From IMG/VR virus record IMGVR_UViG_3300045988_163868, positions 1-12,458 of that record: 12,458 nt of DNA; one strand, written 5' to 3'. Below, in pieces: positions 1-12,458 of this stretch. The notes beneath the pieces are model-generated. The model was not told the DNA's origin. It searched no databases and saw only the letters and a program-made list of their open reading frames with translations. Both the position numbers and the translations under genes were made by a program. Source of the DNA: a virus. The number at the start of each line of letters is the position of its first letter. The first letter of the stretch is position 1.

Positions 1-6
1 AAAGTA

Positions 7-24
7 TTGTTAAACTTTTAACAA
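7..24. promoter_or_regulatory. 18-bp palindrome TTGTTAAA-CT-TTTAACAA, 6 nt from the terminus (mirror copy at 12435-12452)
   Basis: The 8-bp arms are exact reverse complements with a 2-bp centre. The same arms recur at 12295-12312 outside the ITR. Candidate protein-binding site at the origin. Confidence 0.6.
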
Positions 25-48
25 ACTTTGCTGATCCCCGCTTTAGTG

Positions 49-104
49 TGCTAAAGTGCTAAAGTGCTAAAGTGTTAAAGTGGTAATGCTTTAAAGTGCT
101 AAAG
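49..104. repeat. 8-bp periodic repeat block inside the ITR (TGCTAAAG family); mirror copy at 12355-12410
   Basis: Seven consecutive 8-mers kept in register: TGCTAAAG x3 (49-72), TGTTAAAG, TGGTAATG, CTTTAAAG, TGCTAAAG. A 9-bp-arm hairpin is embedded (AATGCTTTA 85-93 / TAAAGCATT 100-108). CTTTAG(41-46)/CTAAAG(51-56) form a further dyad. More CTAAAG(C/T)(G/A) motifs follow at 139-154 and 187-194. Confidence 0.8.
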
Positions 105-115
105 CATTAAAACAT

Positions 116-166
116 ATTAAAAAGGTAGGTTTATTATGCTAAAGCGCTAAAGCATAAAACCTACCT
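116..166 (-). terminator. Rho-independent terminator ending the minus-strand gene array
   Basis: On the minus strand, AGGTAGGTTTTATGCT (151-166) pairs with AGCATAATAAACCTACCT (123-140). This gives 10 + 6 bp with a 2-nt bulge and a 10-nt loop. It is followed immediately by TTTTTAATATGTTTT. The hairpin starts 40 nt downstream of the ATPase stop codon (206-208). Confidence 0.8.
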
Positions 167-205: not shown

Positions 206-1291
206 TCAACTCAAAAATATTTGTTGTGTTTTTGATTGCTCTAAAATCCAATTGCGGAAGAGTTCGCCGACTTCGTTTGTTGAATAAAAAACTTTTTGTT
301 TGTTTATTAAATTTCTAATCAGCAATCCGATTTTGTTATCGCAACTATTCAGATTTATAAAATAATTTGTTTTAGTGCTTGGTGTAAAATCAAAAATGAT
401 GTTATCTGCATTAAACTCTTTTGTTTGCATATGTACAGTTAAAAATACTTCGGAGTTTTTTTCACAAATGTTTATACACATAAATTTATGATTAAAAAAT
501 ACAAACGCTTTATATATAATATTATCAGAAGTAACATTTTTTGGAATATGTGCATAGTTTTTAATCTCCCACTTTCCCTCGGTTATCATTTTTGTACGTG
601 GATTGGTAAACGCAAAATATTTACTTACTTTTTTGGTGTTCTCTGTATCTGAACAGTACTCAACAGCTATCTGTAATTTTTCGTTGCCATATCCGAACGG
701 ATAAACTTTGATTTCGCCTTGTTGCATATTCTCAACATCGCTGATACCCATTTCGGAAAAATAAATGCAATATTTGTTAACAGTATTAGCAATCATATAT
801 ATTTTTGTGCCGTCACGGTCACGCAATAATGACGAGAGTACATTACAAAATATAATAAATTCGTCTGCTAAATAATGACCTCTGGTGATAAATTCGTCAA
901 ACAGAATATAATCAAAATATCCGTTATCTGCACCTTTTGCGCTCTCCCATACATTCAACGCAAAAGTTTGACAAAACGGATCTACTTCACAATCAACAAT
1001 TTTATTATCTTCTATTTTAGCAAAATAAAATCCTCTGTTATAATATCGGATGTAATTCCACTGCCCTGCCGTGATAGTTTCAATATCGTGCGGTGCAAAC
1101 AGATTTTTTATAAATTTTGGTGTTATATCTTCGGCGTATCTTCTTATATACGCCAATCGTTTACCGCTTTTGTAATGTTCTCTGACTGCTTTATTACACA
1201 CTGAATATGTTTTTCCGTTACTTCTTTTTCCGATTATTACATTATAATCGGCTTGCTTTTTATCAATATTTTTAAGGCTGTAATACTTCAT
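206..1291 (-). CDS. DNA encapsidation (packaging) ATPase, phi29 gp16-like
   Basis: 361 aa. Walker A region YNVIIGKRSNGKTYS...AYIRRY parallels phi29 gp16 LNFVIGARGIGKSYA...IYVRRY. Walker B YILFDEFI parallels TIVFDEFI. SD TGGAGT lies 7 nt before the ATG, which starts 3 nt after the polymerase stop. Confidence 0.92.
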   Translation of the reverse strand: MKYYSLKNIDKKQADYNVIIGKRSNGKTYSVCNKAVREHYKSGKRLAYIRRYAEDITPKFIKNLFAPHDIETITAGQWNYIRYYNRGFYFAKIEDNKIVDCEVDPFCQTFALNVWESAKGADNGYFDYILFDEFITRGHYLADEFIIFCNVLSSLLRDRDGTKIYMIANTVNKYCIYFSEMGISDVENMQQGEIKVYPFGYGNEKLQIAVEYCSDTENTKKVSKYFAFTNPRTKMITEGKWEIKNYAHIPKNVTSDNIIYKAFVFFNHKFMCINICEKNSEVFLTVHMQTKEFNADNIIFDFTPSTKTNYFINLNSCDNKIGLLIRNLINKQKVFYSTNEVGELFRNWILEQSKTQQIFLS

Positions 1292-3466: not shown

Positions 3467-4141
3467 TTATTCCTCTTCTCTTTTGAAATCAGTATCTCCG
3501 TATTTGACTAATAACCGTCCGTTTGATGAAAAATCGTTCAAAATTGCTGTTGTATCATAATCGTATGAGTTCATATTATTTGCTAAATTTTCAAGTATGC
3601 TTGAATAGTTTTCGCCGCTTTCAATTCTTGCTTTTGTGATAGCCAAAATGTCAGAGTACAAACTACCTAACACATTTGTATTAAAACCGAGATTTTTCAA
3701 GTCAGTGAACAGATTATCAACAAGTTCAAAAGTCTTTTTGATTGAAATTTTTATAGGTCGTGTTCTTTTACTTCGTTGCGCTTTCATTGTTTCAATTCGT
3801 TCAAAACTTGCTTGTCTTGCTTTCTGTTCTTTTTTTACTGCTGTAACTGTAATGTCGCTTGCTAAAAAATTTCTAACTTGCAAAAATTGAGTTACTAATT
3901 GCTGTTTGCTCTTTTCTTTTGTAGCTGACGAAAAGTAACCGCTTTTCGTTCCAAATCCGTTCGTATTATGTAATAGTGCTGAAAATTCTTGATTATATTG
4001 TTCGCTTTGATTTTGCAAATTTGCGTTATATAATCGGCGCAAACGCTTATTTGCAATAGATACTTCTTTTTTTATAAGCTGTTGCAAGTCTGCAACTGTT
4101 AAATCTTTAACAAGTGAATAATCTAATTTTGCATAACTCAT
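3467..4141 (-). CDS. Candidate terminal (priming) protein
   Basis: 224 aa, basic and predicted helical (KRSKRTRPIKISIKK), with an acidic C-terminal tip. It sits immediately upstream of the polymerase and is translationally coupled to it (3-nt gap), as gp3-gp2 are in phi29. The size is comparable to the phi29 TP, which I recall as about 266 aa. I can see no reliable sequence similarity by eye, so the call rests on synteny and on the ITR/PolB context requiring a TP. Confidence 0.45.
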   Translation of the reverse strand: MSYAKLDYSLVKDLTVADLQQLIKKEVSIANKRLRRLYNANLQNQSEQYNQEFSALLHNTNGFGTKSGYFSSATKEKSKQQLVTQFLQVRNFLASDITVTAVKKEQKARQASFERIETMKAQRSKRTRPIKISIKKTFELVDNLFTDLKNLGFNTNVLGSLYSDILAITKARIESGENYSSILENLANNMNSYDYDTTAILNDFSSNGRLLVKYGDTDFKREEE

Positions 4142-6774: not shown

Positions 6775-6796
6775 AATTTTTAACCTTTCTTATTAT

Positions 6797-6842
6797 AAAG
6801 TGTTTCACGTGAAACATTAAAAAGTGTTTCACGTGAAACATT
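6797..6842. promoter_or_regulatory. Twin perfect 16-bp palindromes TGTTTCACGTGAAACA (6801-6816 and 6825-6840) inside a 22-bp direct repeat with a 24-bp period
   Basis: AAAGTGTTTCACGTGAAACATT occurs twice, at 6797-6818 and 6821-6842. It lies in the 75-nt gap between the capsid stop (6850) and the next start (6774). In minus-strand RNA each copy can hairpin and the first is followed by CUUUUU. Alternatively the two self-complementary copies pair with each other into a 16-bp perfect stem with an 8-nt loop. Confidence 0.75.
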
Positions 6843-6849
6843 GATTTAA

Positions 6850-7995
6850 TTATGGTTTGCCTGTAACATCTGCGACAACAAAAACAATACAGTTTTCGTT
6901 AGTATCATTGATATATGAGCAATCCCATTTATGAAAATAGTTGATAAACTCGCCTTTGGCGTTGTACTGACTTGTTGTTCTAGGATTTTCATTACATACA
7001 GCGCATGCATTTTCATCAAAGATTACACCGATAATACCTGTTTTTTCAACATCTGAACCGCTCGCAGTTTTTACAGAAATCTTGCTTATTTCATTAAAAT
7101 CGAAGTTGTCACCTGCTCCGCTACCCTGCCAATACGGTACAGTAGTATAACCAGCAAGCTGCACAAAATTGTTATGATATGTATCAGAGTAAAGATACAC
7201 CTCCGCTGACTTGTCAAACTCAGACAACATAACAATTTTTTGATTTTCTTTTGGTGTAAAGGTTACATAACCTTTATCATTAAAGAGCATTGACGCTCTT
7301 GTCAGATAATCGCTGTAAAGACTAATCTGCTTGCAAGCATAACGCAAAAATTCTTTGTCGCTTAATGCTTTAGCCGCTGCCAGTGTTGTTCCCTTTTCAG
7401 TATTATAATTTGCAAGCAAATTAATAACATTGTTGTTAGCCGCAAACTTTTCAGCAATCAAGTTGTTAATAGTGCGCATTATCATATTGTCAGTGCAAAG
7501 TGTCATTTTCATAATAACACGATTTTCAATCATAGCGAAAAATCTTGACATCTCGCTTGGTGATGTGAACGCTGACTTTATCTGCTCTTCAACAAATGAT
7601 ATTGGTATCTCAAATGTTGTCTTACTGTTGAAAAATTTTGCTTTTACGGTCGGTGGATTGAAAATAAAAGGGTCGTAACTCTGACCTTTTGTCAATTTCC
7701 ATGACGGATTTTCTTCGACGTCTGGGAGTTCACAACGGATTTTTTCCATAATAGAACCAAATTCCCAACTATCTTTGAGAATGTTCGGCGCTGTTGAATT
7801 GTAAGTCCTGTCCCAAAATACAACTCTACCGATACGGTCAATTAATGATCTTGTGTAATTCTCAATGTCAACCGCACCGAGAACCTCACGACCTACATCA
7901 ACGATATTCGTCAAGTCCTCTTTAACTACTGCGCTTTCGCCGATAATTTCTGCGTTAATTGTGTTTAAAATCGCCGCAATTTGTGTAACTTTCAT
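6850..7995 (-). CDS. Major capsid protein, phi29 gp8-like
   Basis: 381 aa. ENYTRSLIDRIGRVVFWD parallels phi29 gp8 NDFITSLVDRIGLVVIRQ at a comparable N-terminal position. The size fits an HK97-fold capsid lacking the C-terminal Ig domain. A structured element follows the gene. Confidence 0.8.
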   Translation of the reverse strand: MKVTQIAAILNTINAEIIGESAVVKEDLTNIVDVGREVLGAVDIENYTRSLIDRIGRVVFWDRTYNSTAPNILKDSWEFGSIMEKIRCELPDVEENPSWKLTKGQSYDPFIFNPPTVKAKFFNSKTTFEIPISFVEEQIKSAFTSPSEMSRFFAMIENRVIMKMTLCTDNMIMRTINNLIAEKFAANNNVINLLANYNTEKGTTLAAAKALSDKEFLRYACKQISLYSDYLTRASMLFNDKGYVTFTPKENQKIVMLSEFDKSAEVYLYSDTYHNNFVQLAGYTTVPYWQGSGAGDNFDFNEISKISVKTASGSDVEKTGIIGVIFDENACAVCNENPRTTSQYNAKGEFINYFHKWDCSYINDTNENCIVFVVADVTGKP

Positions 7996-8742: not shown

Positions 8743-9654
8743 TCACTCCGTTTCTTCTGTTTCTTCTGATTTTTCTATTGTTTTTTGTTTCCAAATATCA
8801 GACAAAACAACATCACAATTAAGATTAAAAAGATTATTAAGTGATTGTACATTGTTTTTCCTCATTTCCAACATTGCATTGATATTAACTTCTGTTGTTG
8901 TATCATTAACTGCAATTTCGTCACTAACGAGCCTTTCTTTTTTCATATTGAAATTAGAATTTACGCCGATTGCGTGATAAAATTGTGCCAAAAAATATTG
9001 CTGAATATCAATTAATGTTTGCAGTGTGGGACTAACAGAGCCGCCACCTGTTGCGAGCGGTGATATTTCAATAGTGCTTGCTATATCGCTTTTTGCTATT
9101 GCAAACCCGTCACCGTTATAAATTTTTTTAAACACTTCTGAAACACTTTTATAAGCGTTTTCAGTATCAGCTGACGCAAAAGCAAAAAATCTTGAATTTT
9201 TTTGAGCAACATTTATAGAGCACTCATTATCAGATAATAAAATAGCTGTTCGATAAATCAGAGAATATAAGCCGCCTTTTTTAACTGACAAAAGCGGAAA
9301 GTCGTTATACTGTATATCTTTAGCTGAATTATACAAAATAACACAATCTTTGTTAATTGTAAATGTATGACTGCCCAAAACGGGATTGGCTATTATATAC
9401 TGCGATGGCATATAATACTCGTTCGGCTCACCTGCAAACCCACCGCTTGCTACATAAAAATCACCATTTAATTTAAAAAAAGCACAATGACCTTTTAAAA
9501 ATAAACATCTGTTCAAATAGTTGACATCAACGCTTTTTGGTAAATTTTCCCATACAAACATATTTGATACTTTATCATACAACATATTAAAGTAATGAAC
9601 GAACCCATCAGCCGAGGTTAAACCTCGACTGACATCATTAGTAATTTTTGCCAT
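8743..9654 (-). CDS. Head-tail connector (portal / upper collar), phi29 gp10-like
   Basis: 303 aa; phi29 gp10 is about 309 aa as I recall. [30 protein letters not shown] parallels gp10 [54 protein letters not shown] parallels [26 protein letters not shown] AGGAG is upstream and the ATG abuts the holin stop. Confidence 0.92.
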   Translation of the reverse strand: [303 protein letters not shown]

Positions 9655-10059
9655 TTATTCCCCACTCCTTTTATTAATTTGTGAAAGAATTTTTTTCAAC
9701 TTTTTCGGAATAGGCAAACCAAGTTTTGCCGAATTTTCAAGAATAGATATTCCCTCATTTGCAAGATAAAAGAAAATAACTGCTGTTCTAATAGCTGTTC
9801 CCTCTTGCAAAATAAATAAATCAATTAAATGAGCAACACCTACTAAAATGAAAATCATCACTTTTTTACAAATTCCCTTAAAGCCAATTTCACTCGAAAG
9901 CTCTTTTGAAATTATTGCATTAATAACACCTGTCAAATAATCAATAATTACAAATGCAATCAACGCATATAAAAAACCGTCACCGCCACCGAAAAACCAA
10001 CCGAGAAATGCCCCGAGCAGAGAAAAAACAACTTGCATTTGTAGTAAAAACTCTCTCAT
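9655..10059 (-). CDS. Holin, phage phiLC3 / TcdE family (Phage_holin_4_1-like)
   Basis: 134 aa with three hydrophobic segments. Family-typical strings: LIAFVIIDYLTGVINAI, SSEIGFKGICKKVMIFILVGVAHLID, RTAVIFFYLANEGISILENSAKLGLPIPKKLKKIL. The start overlaps the previous stop (TAATG). Confidence 0.93.
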   Translation of the reverse strand: MREFLLQMQVVFSLLGAFLGWFFGGGDGFLYALIAFVIIDYLTGVINAIISKELSSEIGFKGICKKVMIFILVGVAHLIDLFILQEGTAIRTAVIFFYLANEGISILENSAKLGLPIPKKLKKILSQINKRSGE

Positions 10060-10929: not shown

Positions 10930-11241
10930 TCACCGATAGAAATATTTGACTACTGCATATATTATTTCCTTTCCTTTTTGCAAATGTCTACTAACTGTAC
11001 TTTGTGCAATATTCAGCTTTTGCGCAATATCTTTATTTTTCAAACCTTTCACATGCAACTCAATAATTTGTTTCTGTCGCTCTGTCAAATTCTCTGATAT
11101 TACATTATTTACAATATCGTCAAAAGTTCTGCGATATTTGTAATTGTTAGCATTTGAATTTTGTTTCAAATATTGCATATATTCAATTTTGTTAGTGTTT
11201 TCTTCACTCAAGTATATTTTTACTGAATGATTAGTAATCAA
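10930..11241 (-). CDS. Sigma-70 region-4-like / LuxR-GerE-type HTH DNA-binding protein
   Basis: 103 aa. LTERQKQIIELHVKGLKNKDIAQKLNIAQSTVSRHLQKGKEII fits the sigma r4_2 / GerE pattern (L..RQ..+..L...G....+IA..L.I...TV..+L). TTG start with SD GAGGTGA about 6 nt upstream. The start overlaps the upstream stop (TTGA). No sigma region 2 is present. Confidence 0.75.
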   Translation of the reverse strand: MITNHSVKIYLSEENTNKIEYMQYLKQNSNANNYKYRRTFDDIVNNVISENLTERQKQIIELHVKGLKNKDIAQKLNIAQSTVSRHLQKGKEIIYAVVKYFYR

Positions 11242-11942: not shown

Positions 11943-12080
11943 TTAATTTAATTCTATACACACTGTTCGCCATTCGGGGTGTTTTATTAGTATTTCATCA
12001 ATTACATTCTCTGTTAAATCTTCACACCACTGAATAATCTCACCTAGTTCATTGACAATAGCAGTTTTAAATTTTAACAT
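11943..12080 (-). CDS. Small acidic early protein (45 aa from the SD-preceded ATG; 60 aa if the ATG at 12125 is used)
   Basis: The ATG at 12080 has SD AGAGGTGG 5 nt upstream. The upstream ATG (12123-12125) has no SD and sits 7 nt after the -10 box, so it could only be used on a leaderless mRNA. Confidence 0.6.
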   Translation of the reverse strand: MLKFKTAIVNELGEIIQWCEDLTENVIDEILIKHPEWRTVCIELN

Positions 12081-12132
12081 AATTTCCACCTCTTTCCGCA
12101 CTGTAAGTGCTGTAACTTCTTTCATTGTCTAT

Positions 12133-12161
12133 ATTATACTACAAAATTCTAAAAAAAGCAA
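12133..12161 (-). promoter_or_regulatory. Early sigma-A-type promoter
   Basis: On the minus strand: TTGCTT (12156-12161), a 17-nt spacer, then a perfect TATAAT (12133-12138). It is the only consensus -10 with correct spacing that I found upstream of the first gene. Confidence 0.7.
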
Positions 12162-12177
12162 GTTACAATTTTGTAAC
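12162..12177. promoter_or_regulatory. Dyad GTTACAA-TT-TTGTAAC abutting the -35 box (candidate operator)
   Basis: The 7-bp arms are exact reverse complements. The dyad lies immediately upstream of the -35 hexamer. A related GTTAC(T)...(A)GTAAC dyad occurs at 10515-10538. Confidence 0.5.
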
Positions 12178-12183
12178 CAAATA

Positions 12184-12293
12184 GATCAGGAATGGATCAG
12201 GAATGGATCAGGAATGGATCAGGAATGGATCAGGAATGGATCAGGAATGGATCAGGAATGGATCAGGAATGGATCAGGAATGGATCATGAATG
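12184..12293. repeat. Tandem array: 10 copies of the 11-bp unit GATCAGGAATG (9 perfect, last copy GATCATGAATG)
   Basis: Counted directly from the sequence. There are no spacers. The array lies between the early promoter/operator and the inner edge of the right ITR, and has no counterpart at the left end. Confidence 0.97.
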
Positions 12294-12294
12294 G

Positions 12295-12312
12295 TTGTTA
12301 AAAATTTAACAA
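12295..12312. promoter_or_regulatory. Third copy of the terminal 18-bp palindrome (TTGTTAAA-AA-TTTAACAA), internal to the right ITR
   Basis: It has the same 8-bp arms as 7-24 and 12435-12452 and differs only in the 2-bp centre. It lies between the 11-bp array and the ITR boundary (12317). Confidence 0.6.
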
Positions 12313-12316
12313 TATA

Positions 12317-12458
12317 TTAGCATAATAAACCTACCTTTTTAATATGTTTTAATGCTTTAGCACTTTAAAGCATTACCACTTTAACACTTTAGCACTTTAG
12401 CACTTTAGCACACTAAAGCGGGGATCAGCAAAGTTTGTTAAAAGTTTAACAATACTTT
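12317..12458. repeat. Right inverted terminal repeat (142 bp)
   Basis: A perfect reverse complement of 1-142. The window ends exactly at ...TACTTT-3', which is 5'-AAAGTA on the other strand. Confidence 0.95.

Follow-up and report, generated by a model that had tools for sequence, protein, structure and literature searches.

A probable variable-number tandem repeat carrying ten GATC sites beside the early promoter of a small phi29-like gut phage

The stretch of DNA analysed here is the IMG/VR record IMGVR_UViG_3300045988_163868, hereafter the window, which is the complete genome of a phi29-like podovirus, 12,458 bp long and linear with inverted terminal repeats (ITRs), and the element in question is an array of ten 11-bp units with ten GATC sites near its right end. 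A preliminary description, made from the letters alone, had placed this array in non-coding DNA, at the right end only and beside the early promoter, and so it lies: it is 110 bp long (12184-12293), non-coding, and found just inside the right ITR and at no other end. On the + strand, it consists of nine copies of GATCAGGAATG and one of GATCATGAATG; the variant is the tenth, ITR-proximal unit (12283-12293), while the other nine are identical. Tandem Repeats Finder (TRF) reported the array at 12180-12294 with a period of 11, 10.5 copies, and 98% matches. All open reading frames (ORFs) taken as genes are carried on the minus strand, on which the array reads CCATTCATGAT, then nine copies of CCATTCCTGAT, and then C. 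The order on this strand is ITR, palindrome P1, array, palindrome P2, TTGCTT-17 nt-TATAAT, a 5' untranslated region (5'UTR) with a Shine-Dalgarno sequence, and the first gene. The features of the two ends are as follows:

1..142, unstranded, left ITR, containing P1 (7-24) and GATC (33-36) and lacking the array
11943..12080, minus strand, first gene downstream of the promoter, in its 45-aa form, with ATG at 12080 and Shine-Dalgarno sequence GGAAAGAGGTG
12133..12161, minus strand, inferred early promoter, with -35 TTGCTT at 12161-12156, a 17-nt spacer, and -10 TATAAT at 12138-12133
12162..12177, unstranded, P2 palindrome GTTACAA-NN-TTGTAAC, directly adjoining the -35 hexamer
12184..12294, unstranded, 11-bp tandem array, holding ten of the 14 GATC sites, its unit register set by comparison with relatives
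12295..12312, unstranded, P1 palindrome TTGTTAAAAATTTAACAA, an internal copy of the terminal palindrome, adjoining the ITR-proximal side of the array
12317..12458, unstranded, right ITR, with 5'-AAAGTA, the terminal P1 copy at 12435-12452, 8-bp GYGYTAAA repeats, and GATC at 12423-12426

The array lies approximately 23 nt upstream of the -35 of the first gene's promoter. Relative to the inferred transcription start, which would be near 12126, it occupies positions approximately 58 to 167 nt upstream, and P2 is centered approximately 43 nt upstream, at the promoter-proximal border of the spacer that varies among relatives. The promoter points leftward, away from the array, which on this reading lies outside its transcript. 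We infer this early promoter from its sequence and place; it was not listed by the consensus promoter scanner, its -35 matching at 3/6 positions only, and the relatives carry at the same place TTGATT or TTGAAT, 16-17 nt, and a TATAAT preceded by TG. The scanner's + strand candidate, TTGACA-17-TAACAT at 12052-12080, lies inside the first gene and was treated as a by-product of conserved coding sequence. The longest ORF of the first gene (60 aa) would begin at 12125, only 8 nt past the -10; the gene probably starts instead at the ATG at 12080 (45 aa), which has a strong Shine-Dalgarno sequence.

Each GATC spans the junction between neighboring units (…CCTGAT|CCATT…), so the ten phased sites result from the amplification of one unit. 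The earlier statement that all of the sites face the same side of the helix holds only approximately, as at 10.5 bp per turn each unit adds approximately 17 degrees, and the first and last GATC stand approximately 154 degrees apart. The segment 12282-12314 (repeat I7), which comprises P1 and the first unit, shares 85% identity with the genome terminus, so that the array region consists in part of a diverged paralogue of subterminal sequence.

Eleven lineages were compared, found by means of the Phi29-type major capsid protein (MCP) in IMG/VR and metagenome contigs and by means of homologues of the 83-aa and 45/60-aa early proteins; the related contigs come from human-gut or faecal metagenomes. 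P1, P2, the promoter (-35 and -10), and the 5'UTR are conserved in all of the compared lineages, and it is the spacer between P1 and P2 that varies:

L010, L011, L014, and L158: spacer of 4 nt, no unit, 0 GATC
L002 (= L004): spacer of 19 nt, one proto-unit ACATTCCTATT, 0 GATC
L023: spacer of 19 nt, one unit, 1 GATC
L022: spacer of 30 nt, two units (variant CCATTCTTGAT), 2 GATC
L001 (L005 identical over the array): spacer of 52 nt, three units and one decayed, 3 GATC
L024-L027 and L036: spacer of 63 nt, four units and one decayed, 4 GATC
Window: spacer of 118 nt, ten units, 10 GATC

The spacer length in the unit-bearing lineages is thus 8+11n nt, where n is 1, 2, 4, 5, or 10. A GATC-bearing array is absent from 5/11 lineages, and the other six hold 1, 2, 3, 4, 4, and 10 GATC sites. 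The units are perfect or near-perfect, are arranged head to tail, and differ in number by whole units between conserved flanks, as in a variable-number tandem repeat (VNTR). Besides the regular unit, there are the variants CCATTCATGAT and CCATTCTTGAT and such decayed promoter-proximal units as CCATTCCTGTT, CCATTCCTGCT, and CCATTTCTGTT, a pattern like that of ordinary repeat decay. Genomes with and without the array are intermixed in the tree of the MCP gene, the nucleotide identity of which is 87-96%. The copy number of ten in the window rests on a short-read assembly and, although no better figure is to be had, is not certain; in L008, a second assembly of this phage, a 100-N gap falls inside the array, and a third contig of it (L009) ends there. 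In L001 (IMG/VR contig 3300045988_167490), Illumina adapter remnants, CTTCCGATCT and AGATCGGAAG, stand at 1-10 and 12425-12434, where they replace the first few genome bases and add two spurious GATC sites to the counts.

Outside the array, the unit does not recur: one match with two mismatches was found elsewhere in the genome, where 2.1 are expected by chance. Single-strand DNA folding of the array was no better than that of shuffles on both strands (z = -0.9 each), only the flanking palindromes folding, and the whole window has no match in Rfam. An IMG/VR scan with the 15-mer CATTCNTGATCCATT (1.4 units) returned at least 120 matches, none of them with P1, P2, or a tandem unit, and these look like chance, the pattern being too short to be useful. 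An informal comparison of the unit with consensus sites of GerE, WalR, PhoP, Spo0A, CcpA, and CodY gave no convincing match.

The preferred reading, to which a probability of roughly 0.55 is given, is that the array is a slippage-type VNTR, probably a spacer of variable length that has little, if any, sequence-specific function. It is classified in this way because it is an insertion between conserved elements that is missing in almost half of the lineages and has integral copy numbers in the rest, and because its unit is not recurrent, forms no significant single-strand structure, and matches no RNA family. From sequence comparison, we conclude that it is a variable, lineage-specific repeat, as opposed to a conserved iteron or methylation switch. 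The preliminary description had proposed a functional platform of such kinds (iteron, methylation switch, or decoy), and as a conserved element this fails, since 5/11 lineages do without a GATC-bearing array; the check that it suggested, for relatives without the array or without GATC in it, came out half one way and half the other, five lineages lacking such an array and six carrying homologous GATC units.

VNTRs (simple-sequence repeats) in intergenic and promoter regions arise by slipped-strand mispairing, and the same process during protein-primed replication would be the most likely source of the array. It would have arisen in the short spacer between two conserved right-end palindromes, P1 (a copy of the terminal, Rex-box-like palindrome) and the operator-like P2. 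The ancestral insert of approximately 15 nt may have resembled the spacer of L002 (A ACATTCCTATT TCATTTG), in which CATT recurs 11 nt apart; having gained the junction TGAT|CC, it would then have grown and shrunk by whole 11-nt units. The array would move P1 and the ITR origin region 11n bp from P2 and the promoter and may weakly tune early transcription. Its GATC sites may be tolerated because a tight cluster would be closer to one restriction target than to ten. Compared with the VNTRs upstream of bacterial and phage promoters, the array shares head-to-tail near-identical units, whole-unit differences, conserved flanks, and decayed edge units; it differs from them in that its copy number is stable within a strain, with no sign of high-frequency switching, and in that its unit carries a restriction-type palindrome avoided by the rest of the genome.

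As to this palindrome, an exact count gave 14 GATC sites in the window, at 33, 979, and 7847, at ten positions spaced 11 bp apart between 12184 and 12283, and at 12423, in agreement with the earlier count of ten in the array, one per ITR, and two elsewhere. These last two are as follows:

979..982, unstranded, GATC, one of only two sites in the unique coding part
7847..7850, unstranded, GATC, the second of only two sites in the unique coding part

The untranscribed end regions hold 12/14 of the sites. Expected counts vary with the model: base composition gives 35.8, dinucleotides give 26.0, a maximal-order Markov model gives 28.4, and dinucleotide shuffles give 24.4 +/- 4.7, which makes the approximately 30 sites estimated earlier reasonable. 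With the array removed, 4 GATC are observed against 24.7-26.0 expected (observed/expected ratio approximately 0.15), and 0/300 second-order Markov simulations reached <=4, so that the counter-selection of GATC claimed before is borne out. GATC is, however, not singled out, since other words are equally or more depleted in the window: GANTC, the most strongly avoided word, with 0 observed vs. 24.6 expected (z = -5.1), CATG with 3 vs. 22.5, CCGG with 2 vs. 18.3, CGCG with 0 vs. 14.9, and ACGT with 5 vs. 19.4; GGCC is depleted too (0 vs. 3.7), and GCGC, GTAC, and TGCA are not. The depletion is thus a general avoidance of short palindromes and is not specific to GATC.

The same holds beyond the window. 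Outside the spacer, the relatives have 0-6 GATC against 21-28 expected in approximately 10.3-12.4 kb of sequence each, and the non-array positions mostly differ among them; the array-less relatives have 1-6 GATC, mostly at differing places, which implies that a few sites per genome are tolerated. The distant podophage relatives are GATC-poor as well (L003, 2 vs. 17-24 expected; L006, 0 vs. 22-31), and GATC is genuinely counter-selected across the clade. In the array-bearing sequences, the array accounts for 71-100% of the GATC sites counted and, in several, for every one. Unrelated contigs of approximately 31% GC that carry the 45/60-aa and 83-aa genes, some of them with an integrase, have the same fingerprint of avoidance, with GATC at 0-3 vs. 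22-46 expected, CATG at 1-5 vs. 31-61, ACGT at 0-3 vs. 19-35, and CGCG at 0-1 vs. 9-11; these contigs probably have the same host. The depleted words may overlap the specificities of the Fusobacterium nucleatum enzymes FnuAI, FnuCI/EI, FnuDII, and FnuDI. Because unrelated phage contigs that share the early genes have the same fingerprint, host restriction is the likely explanation of the short-palindrome avoidance, a reading consistent with restriction-site avoidance in phages (PMC6286503). The window resembles that pattern in its strong depletion of GATC, GANTC, CATG, CGCG, CCGG, and ACGT, most of which are also depleted in the relatives and the co-occurring phage contigs, and it differs in that the array is a local exception, where the avoided word has been amplified up to tenfold.

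The first gene is present in 6/6 array-bearing and 0/5 array-less lineages (Fisher p = 0.002, uncorrected for phylogeny); in the array-less genomes, the same 5'UTR is fused directly to the 83-aa gene. Its product is acidic (pI 4.5), and homologues with 74-82% identity occur in contigs of different gene content, some with an integrase. The co-occurrence of array and first gene may be simple linkage within one module, and the early region is a swap-prone module. Where the window has a 119-aa gene, L024 (1071-1511) and L036 (681-1136) have an early gene of 146-151 aa with the Pfam 'Sequestin' domain.

The two ITRs are perfect copies of 142 bp with one GATC each. Their terminal 5'-AAAGTA is the same as that of the phi29 terminal repeat (quoted in PMC11476376). 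The 8-bp GYGYTAAA repeats lie at 48-111 and 12348-12419, and TRF also scores periods of 16 and 24 there. This higher-order period of 24 bp is reminiscent of p6 binding in phi29, which has a 24-bp periodicity. The number of 8-bp repeats varies greatly among relatives, with more than 230 nt of them in L022 (1-235), which indicates that the end region is repeat-prone in general. The ITR GATC (CTGATCC, 33-36 and 12423-12426) is unique to the window strain, the relatives having CCGCTCC, CCGTTCC, or CCATTCC; as both ITR differences from L001 move toward the array unit, this GATC may possibly have come from gene conversion by the paralogous internal terminus-like copy beside the array.

The palindrome TTGTTAA-NNNN-TTAACAA is perfect at 7-24, 12295-12312, and 12435-12452, that is, 7 nt from each end and beside the array. 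P1 is identical to TTGTTAANNNNTTAACAA, the consensus of the clostridial Rex box, which PMC5367854 credits to Ravcheev et al. 2012. At 4096-4113, where the 224-aa gene upstream of the polymerase begins, there is a further Rex-box-like copy with a single mismatch, and at <=2 mismatches, there are five matches in all against 0.16 expected, including one two-mismatch match at 1886-1903 that was left uninterpreted. P1 is kept in all relatives, in some of them with 1-2 changes or a center 1 nt longer. This Rex-box-like element may couple early transcription or replication to the redox state of the host; alternatively, it may be an origin element. The 18-mer TTACAAAATTGTAACTTG (P2 and TTG) also precedes promoter-like sequences in viral contigs of 45-183 kb (L016, L018, and L020), and in L020, it is itself preceded by GCGTTAAA/GTGCTAA 8-mers and the motif CTTTAGCACACTAAA, as in the ITR of the window phage. 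The P2 region thus looks like a regulatory module common to unrelated phages, and the shared P1 and P2 sites suggest that host or common regulators may act on the region.

The window is recognized as the genome of a phi29-like podovirus by its Phi29-type MCP, connector, gp16 ATPase, PolB YxDTDS motif, and ITRs. The genes with Pfam matches are as follows:

206-1291, minus strand, gp16 packaging ATPase (Pfam, Gp16 E = 3e-11)
6850-7995, minus strand, Phi29-type MCP (Pfam Phi29_MCP, E = 3e-54)
8743-9654, minus strand, connector (Pfam, E = 4e-23)
9655-10059, minus strand, holin, PF05105 (Pfam)
10930-11241, minus strand, GerE/sigma-region-4 helix-turn-helix (HTH) protein (Pfam)

The PolB motif is present as YSDTDS in a 722-aa ORF, the homologues of which are weak matches to DNA_pol_B_2 (PF03175). 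The GerE/sigma-region-4 HTH is the sole DNA-binding domain detected by Pfam, and the protein is encoded in the array-less genomes too. Among the 15 minus-strand ORFs considered to be genes, Pfam detected neither a p6-like family, although a divergent analogue may exist, nor a methyltransferase family. Between the capsid gene and the gene next to it, TRF lists a 24-bp tandem repeat at 6792-6842 (2.1 copies, 96% matches), each copy of which contains the palindrome GTTTCACGTGAAAC; this repeat may serve as a terminator or as a pair of operators at a module boundary.

Among GenBank phages, megablast with the whole window gave no match, and only distant cultured relatives came up in tblastn with the MCP, the top matches being to Shigella, Acinetobacter, Vibrio, and Salmonella astrithr-like phages (39-46%) and to Amedibacillus phages (29%). 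Genomes of this phi29-like kind, 11-14 kb long, have already been described from human faeces (PMC11476376). The search for a host, in which the early-protein families (45/60-aa and 83-aa) were scanned against genome contigs, found no match in either scan. The Rex box and the holin family, PF05105 being presumably typical of phages with Gram-positive hosts, point to a Clostridia-like host.

Several observations weigh against the view that the array is a VNTR of little function. Arrays are identical in contigs of the same or near-identical strains across samples or assemblies (L001 = L005; L024 = L025 = L026 = L027), and the repeat is therefore not hypermutable. L022 and L024 have 0 GATC in approximately 10.4 kb outside the array, where approximately 22 are expected, and 2 and 4 inside it, and L001 has 3 in its array and none elsewhere apart from the two adapter remnants. 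A random 11-nt unit would contain GATC with a probability of approximately 2% at the background frequency and approximately 0.4% at the depleted one. Slippage could easily delete the array's GATC sites, yet the avoided word persists, amplified, at one locus, which remains odd. The three interior unit substitutions all spare GATC, a weak point that is not significant ((7/11)^3 = 0.26). Lastly, the perfect linkage of the array with the first gene could reflect co-function instead of mere linkage.

That the units bind a phage early protein or a host protein head to tail, acting on the early promoter or the right-end origin, is unlikely but not without attractions. Such a platform would resemble iterons, the 11-bp-spaced direct repeats of OmpR/PhoB-type regulators, or the organization of the phi29 origin by p6; the distance of the array from the transcription start is in the range of upstream activators, its period is close to one helical turn, homologous units are retained in six lineages, a GerE/sigma-region-4 HTH protein is encoded nearby, and the presence of the array is linked to the small first gene. 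Yet five of the eleven lineages, all with conserved phi29-like gene sets, keep the promoter, P1, and P2 without a GATC-bearing array (four with no unit and L002 with its GATC-less proto-unit), the copy number spans 1 to 10, and no single copies of the motif stand at other promoters. The HTH protein occurs in array-less genomes as well, and the linked 45-aa protein is acidic, unlike a DNA binder. The platform thus fails the conservation test and survives as a lineage-specific possibility only. Like plasmid and phage iterons, the array is a set of direct repeats beside a replication origin region and a promoter; iterons are usually approximately 17-22 bp long, whereas the unit here is 11 bp, comes without a cognate Rep-type initiator in a genome with end-based, protein-primed replication, and is not conserved in relatives. 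In phi29, the p6 nucleoprotein complex at the right end represses the early promoter C2, and the window is similar in being a small phi29-like genome in which the early promoter neighbors the right terminus and periodic DNA separates origin from promoter. However, p6 binds with a 24-bp periodicity and recognizes the bendability of DNA, not a repeated sequence, and the array is dispensable in relatives; the p6-like control put forward in the preliminary description found no support, as no p6-like family was detected by Pfam among the ORFs of the window.

It is improbable, too, that the array is a regulatory spacer tuner, in which whole-unit changes set the distance from P1 to P2 and the promoter at a roughly constant helical phase, so that redox-linked or P1-binder-linked control would differ in strength by lineage, as with the repeats of bacterial contingency promoters. 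In keeping with it, P1 is a perfect match to the clostridial Rex-box consensus and sits 4 nt from P2 in array-less genomes, 11-bp steps preserve helical phase at small n, and the window combines the largest array with the weakest promoter (-35 with a 3/6 match and no TG before the -10). The phase is, however, off by approximately half a turn at n = 10, P1 may belong to the replication origin, being 7 nt from each genome end, and the binding of Rex or another protein at P1 is putative. Contingency loci are expected to switch repeat number at high frequency, unlike this array, the copy number of which is stable within a strain. More improbable still is a selected GATC cluster that interacts with a host GATC-specific restriction-modification or methylation system, whether as a methylation sensor or timer at the early promoter or as a sink or recruitment site for the enzyme. 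The strong clade-wide avoidance, seen also in L003, L006, and the unrelated contigs that share the early genes, together with the concentration of most or all GATC of array-bearing sequences in the array and of the window's sites in untranscribed end regions, would fit such a role, as would the retention of GATC by every complete interior unit and the position of the sites directly before the early promoter, on what is probably the first genome end to enter the cell. But the array-less relatives show the same avoidance, presumably in the same hosts, with a spacer count of 0 GATC in L002, L010, L011, L014, and L158, and no methyltransferase family was matched among the 15 ORFs scanned by Pfam. 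A sink would be lethal and not protective, and a restriction-enzyme decoy is accordingly unlikely, since a cut in the array would, given phi29-type replication, remove the right ITR and origin. The GATC clusters read through Dam (Escherichia coli oriC/SeqA, phage P1 pac, Mu mom, and pap) are likewise packed in short non-coding control regions, and SeqA prefers a GATC spacing near one helical turn, to which the spacing here is similar. Those clusters, however, need Dam and specific readers, and SeqA/Dam-type readers are gammaproteobacterial, whereas the Rex box and holin family suggest a Clostridia-like host; moreover, the sites of the array are exact copies of one unit, and close relatives lack them. 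Scarcely credible, finally, is a trivial origin as an assembly error, as human satellite contamination (GGAAT motif), or as part of an 85-aa + strand ORF (12052-12309). Assemblies do struggle with the array, as the N gap in L008 and the contig end in L009 attest, and the ORF formally spans it; however, homologous arrays with identical flanks in independent IMG/VR, ENA, and Logan assemblies effectively rule out assembly artefact and contamination, and the ORF, which has a TTG start and runs antisense through the first gene and promoter, is impossible in array-less relatives.

As a variable repeat, the array can serve as a strain marker for this clade of phi29-like human-gut phages of approximately 12 kb and as a warning in assembly, where contigs break or gap inside it; it also illustrates how the amplification of a unit can, as a by-product, yield a striking phased motif. 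If the GATC sites of the array were selected after all, it would be an unusual case of a phage retaining an avoided restriction word at a single control locus, and the array would be a cis element tied to restriction-modification in a phi29-like phage with a gut host of Gram-positive type. The avoidance fingerprint (GANTC, GATC, CATG, CGCG, CCGG, and ACGT) could help identify the host of the clade. The Rex-box-like palindromes at both ends and beside the early promoter hint at a possible coupling of early transcription or replication to the redox state of the host, and the shared P1 and P2 sites merit more attention than the array itself.

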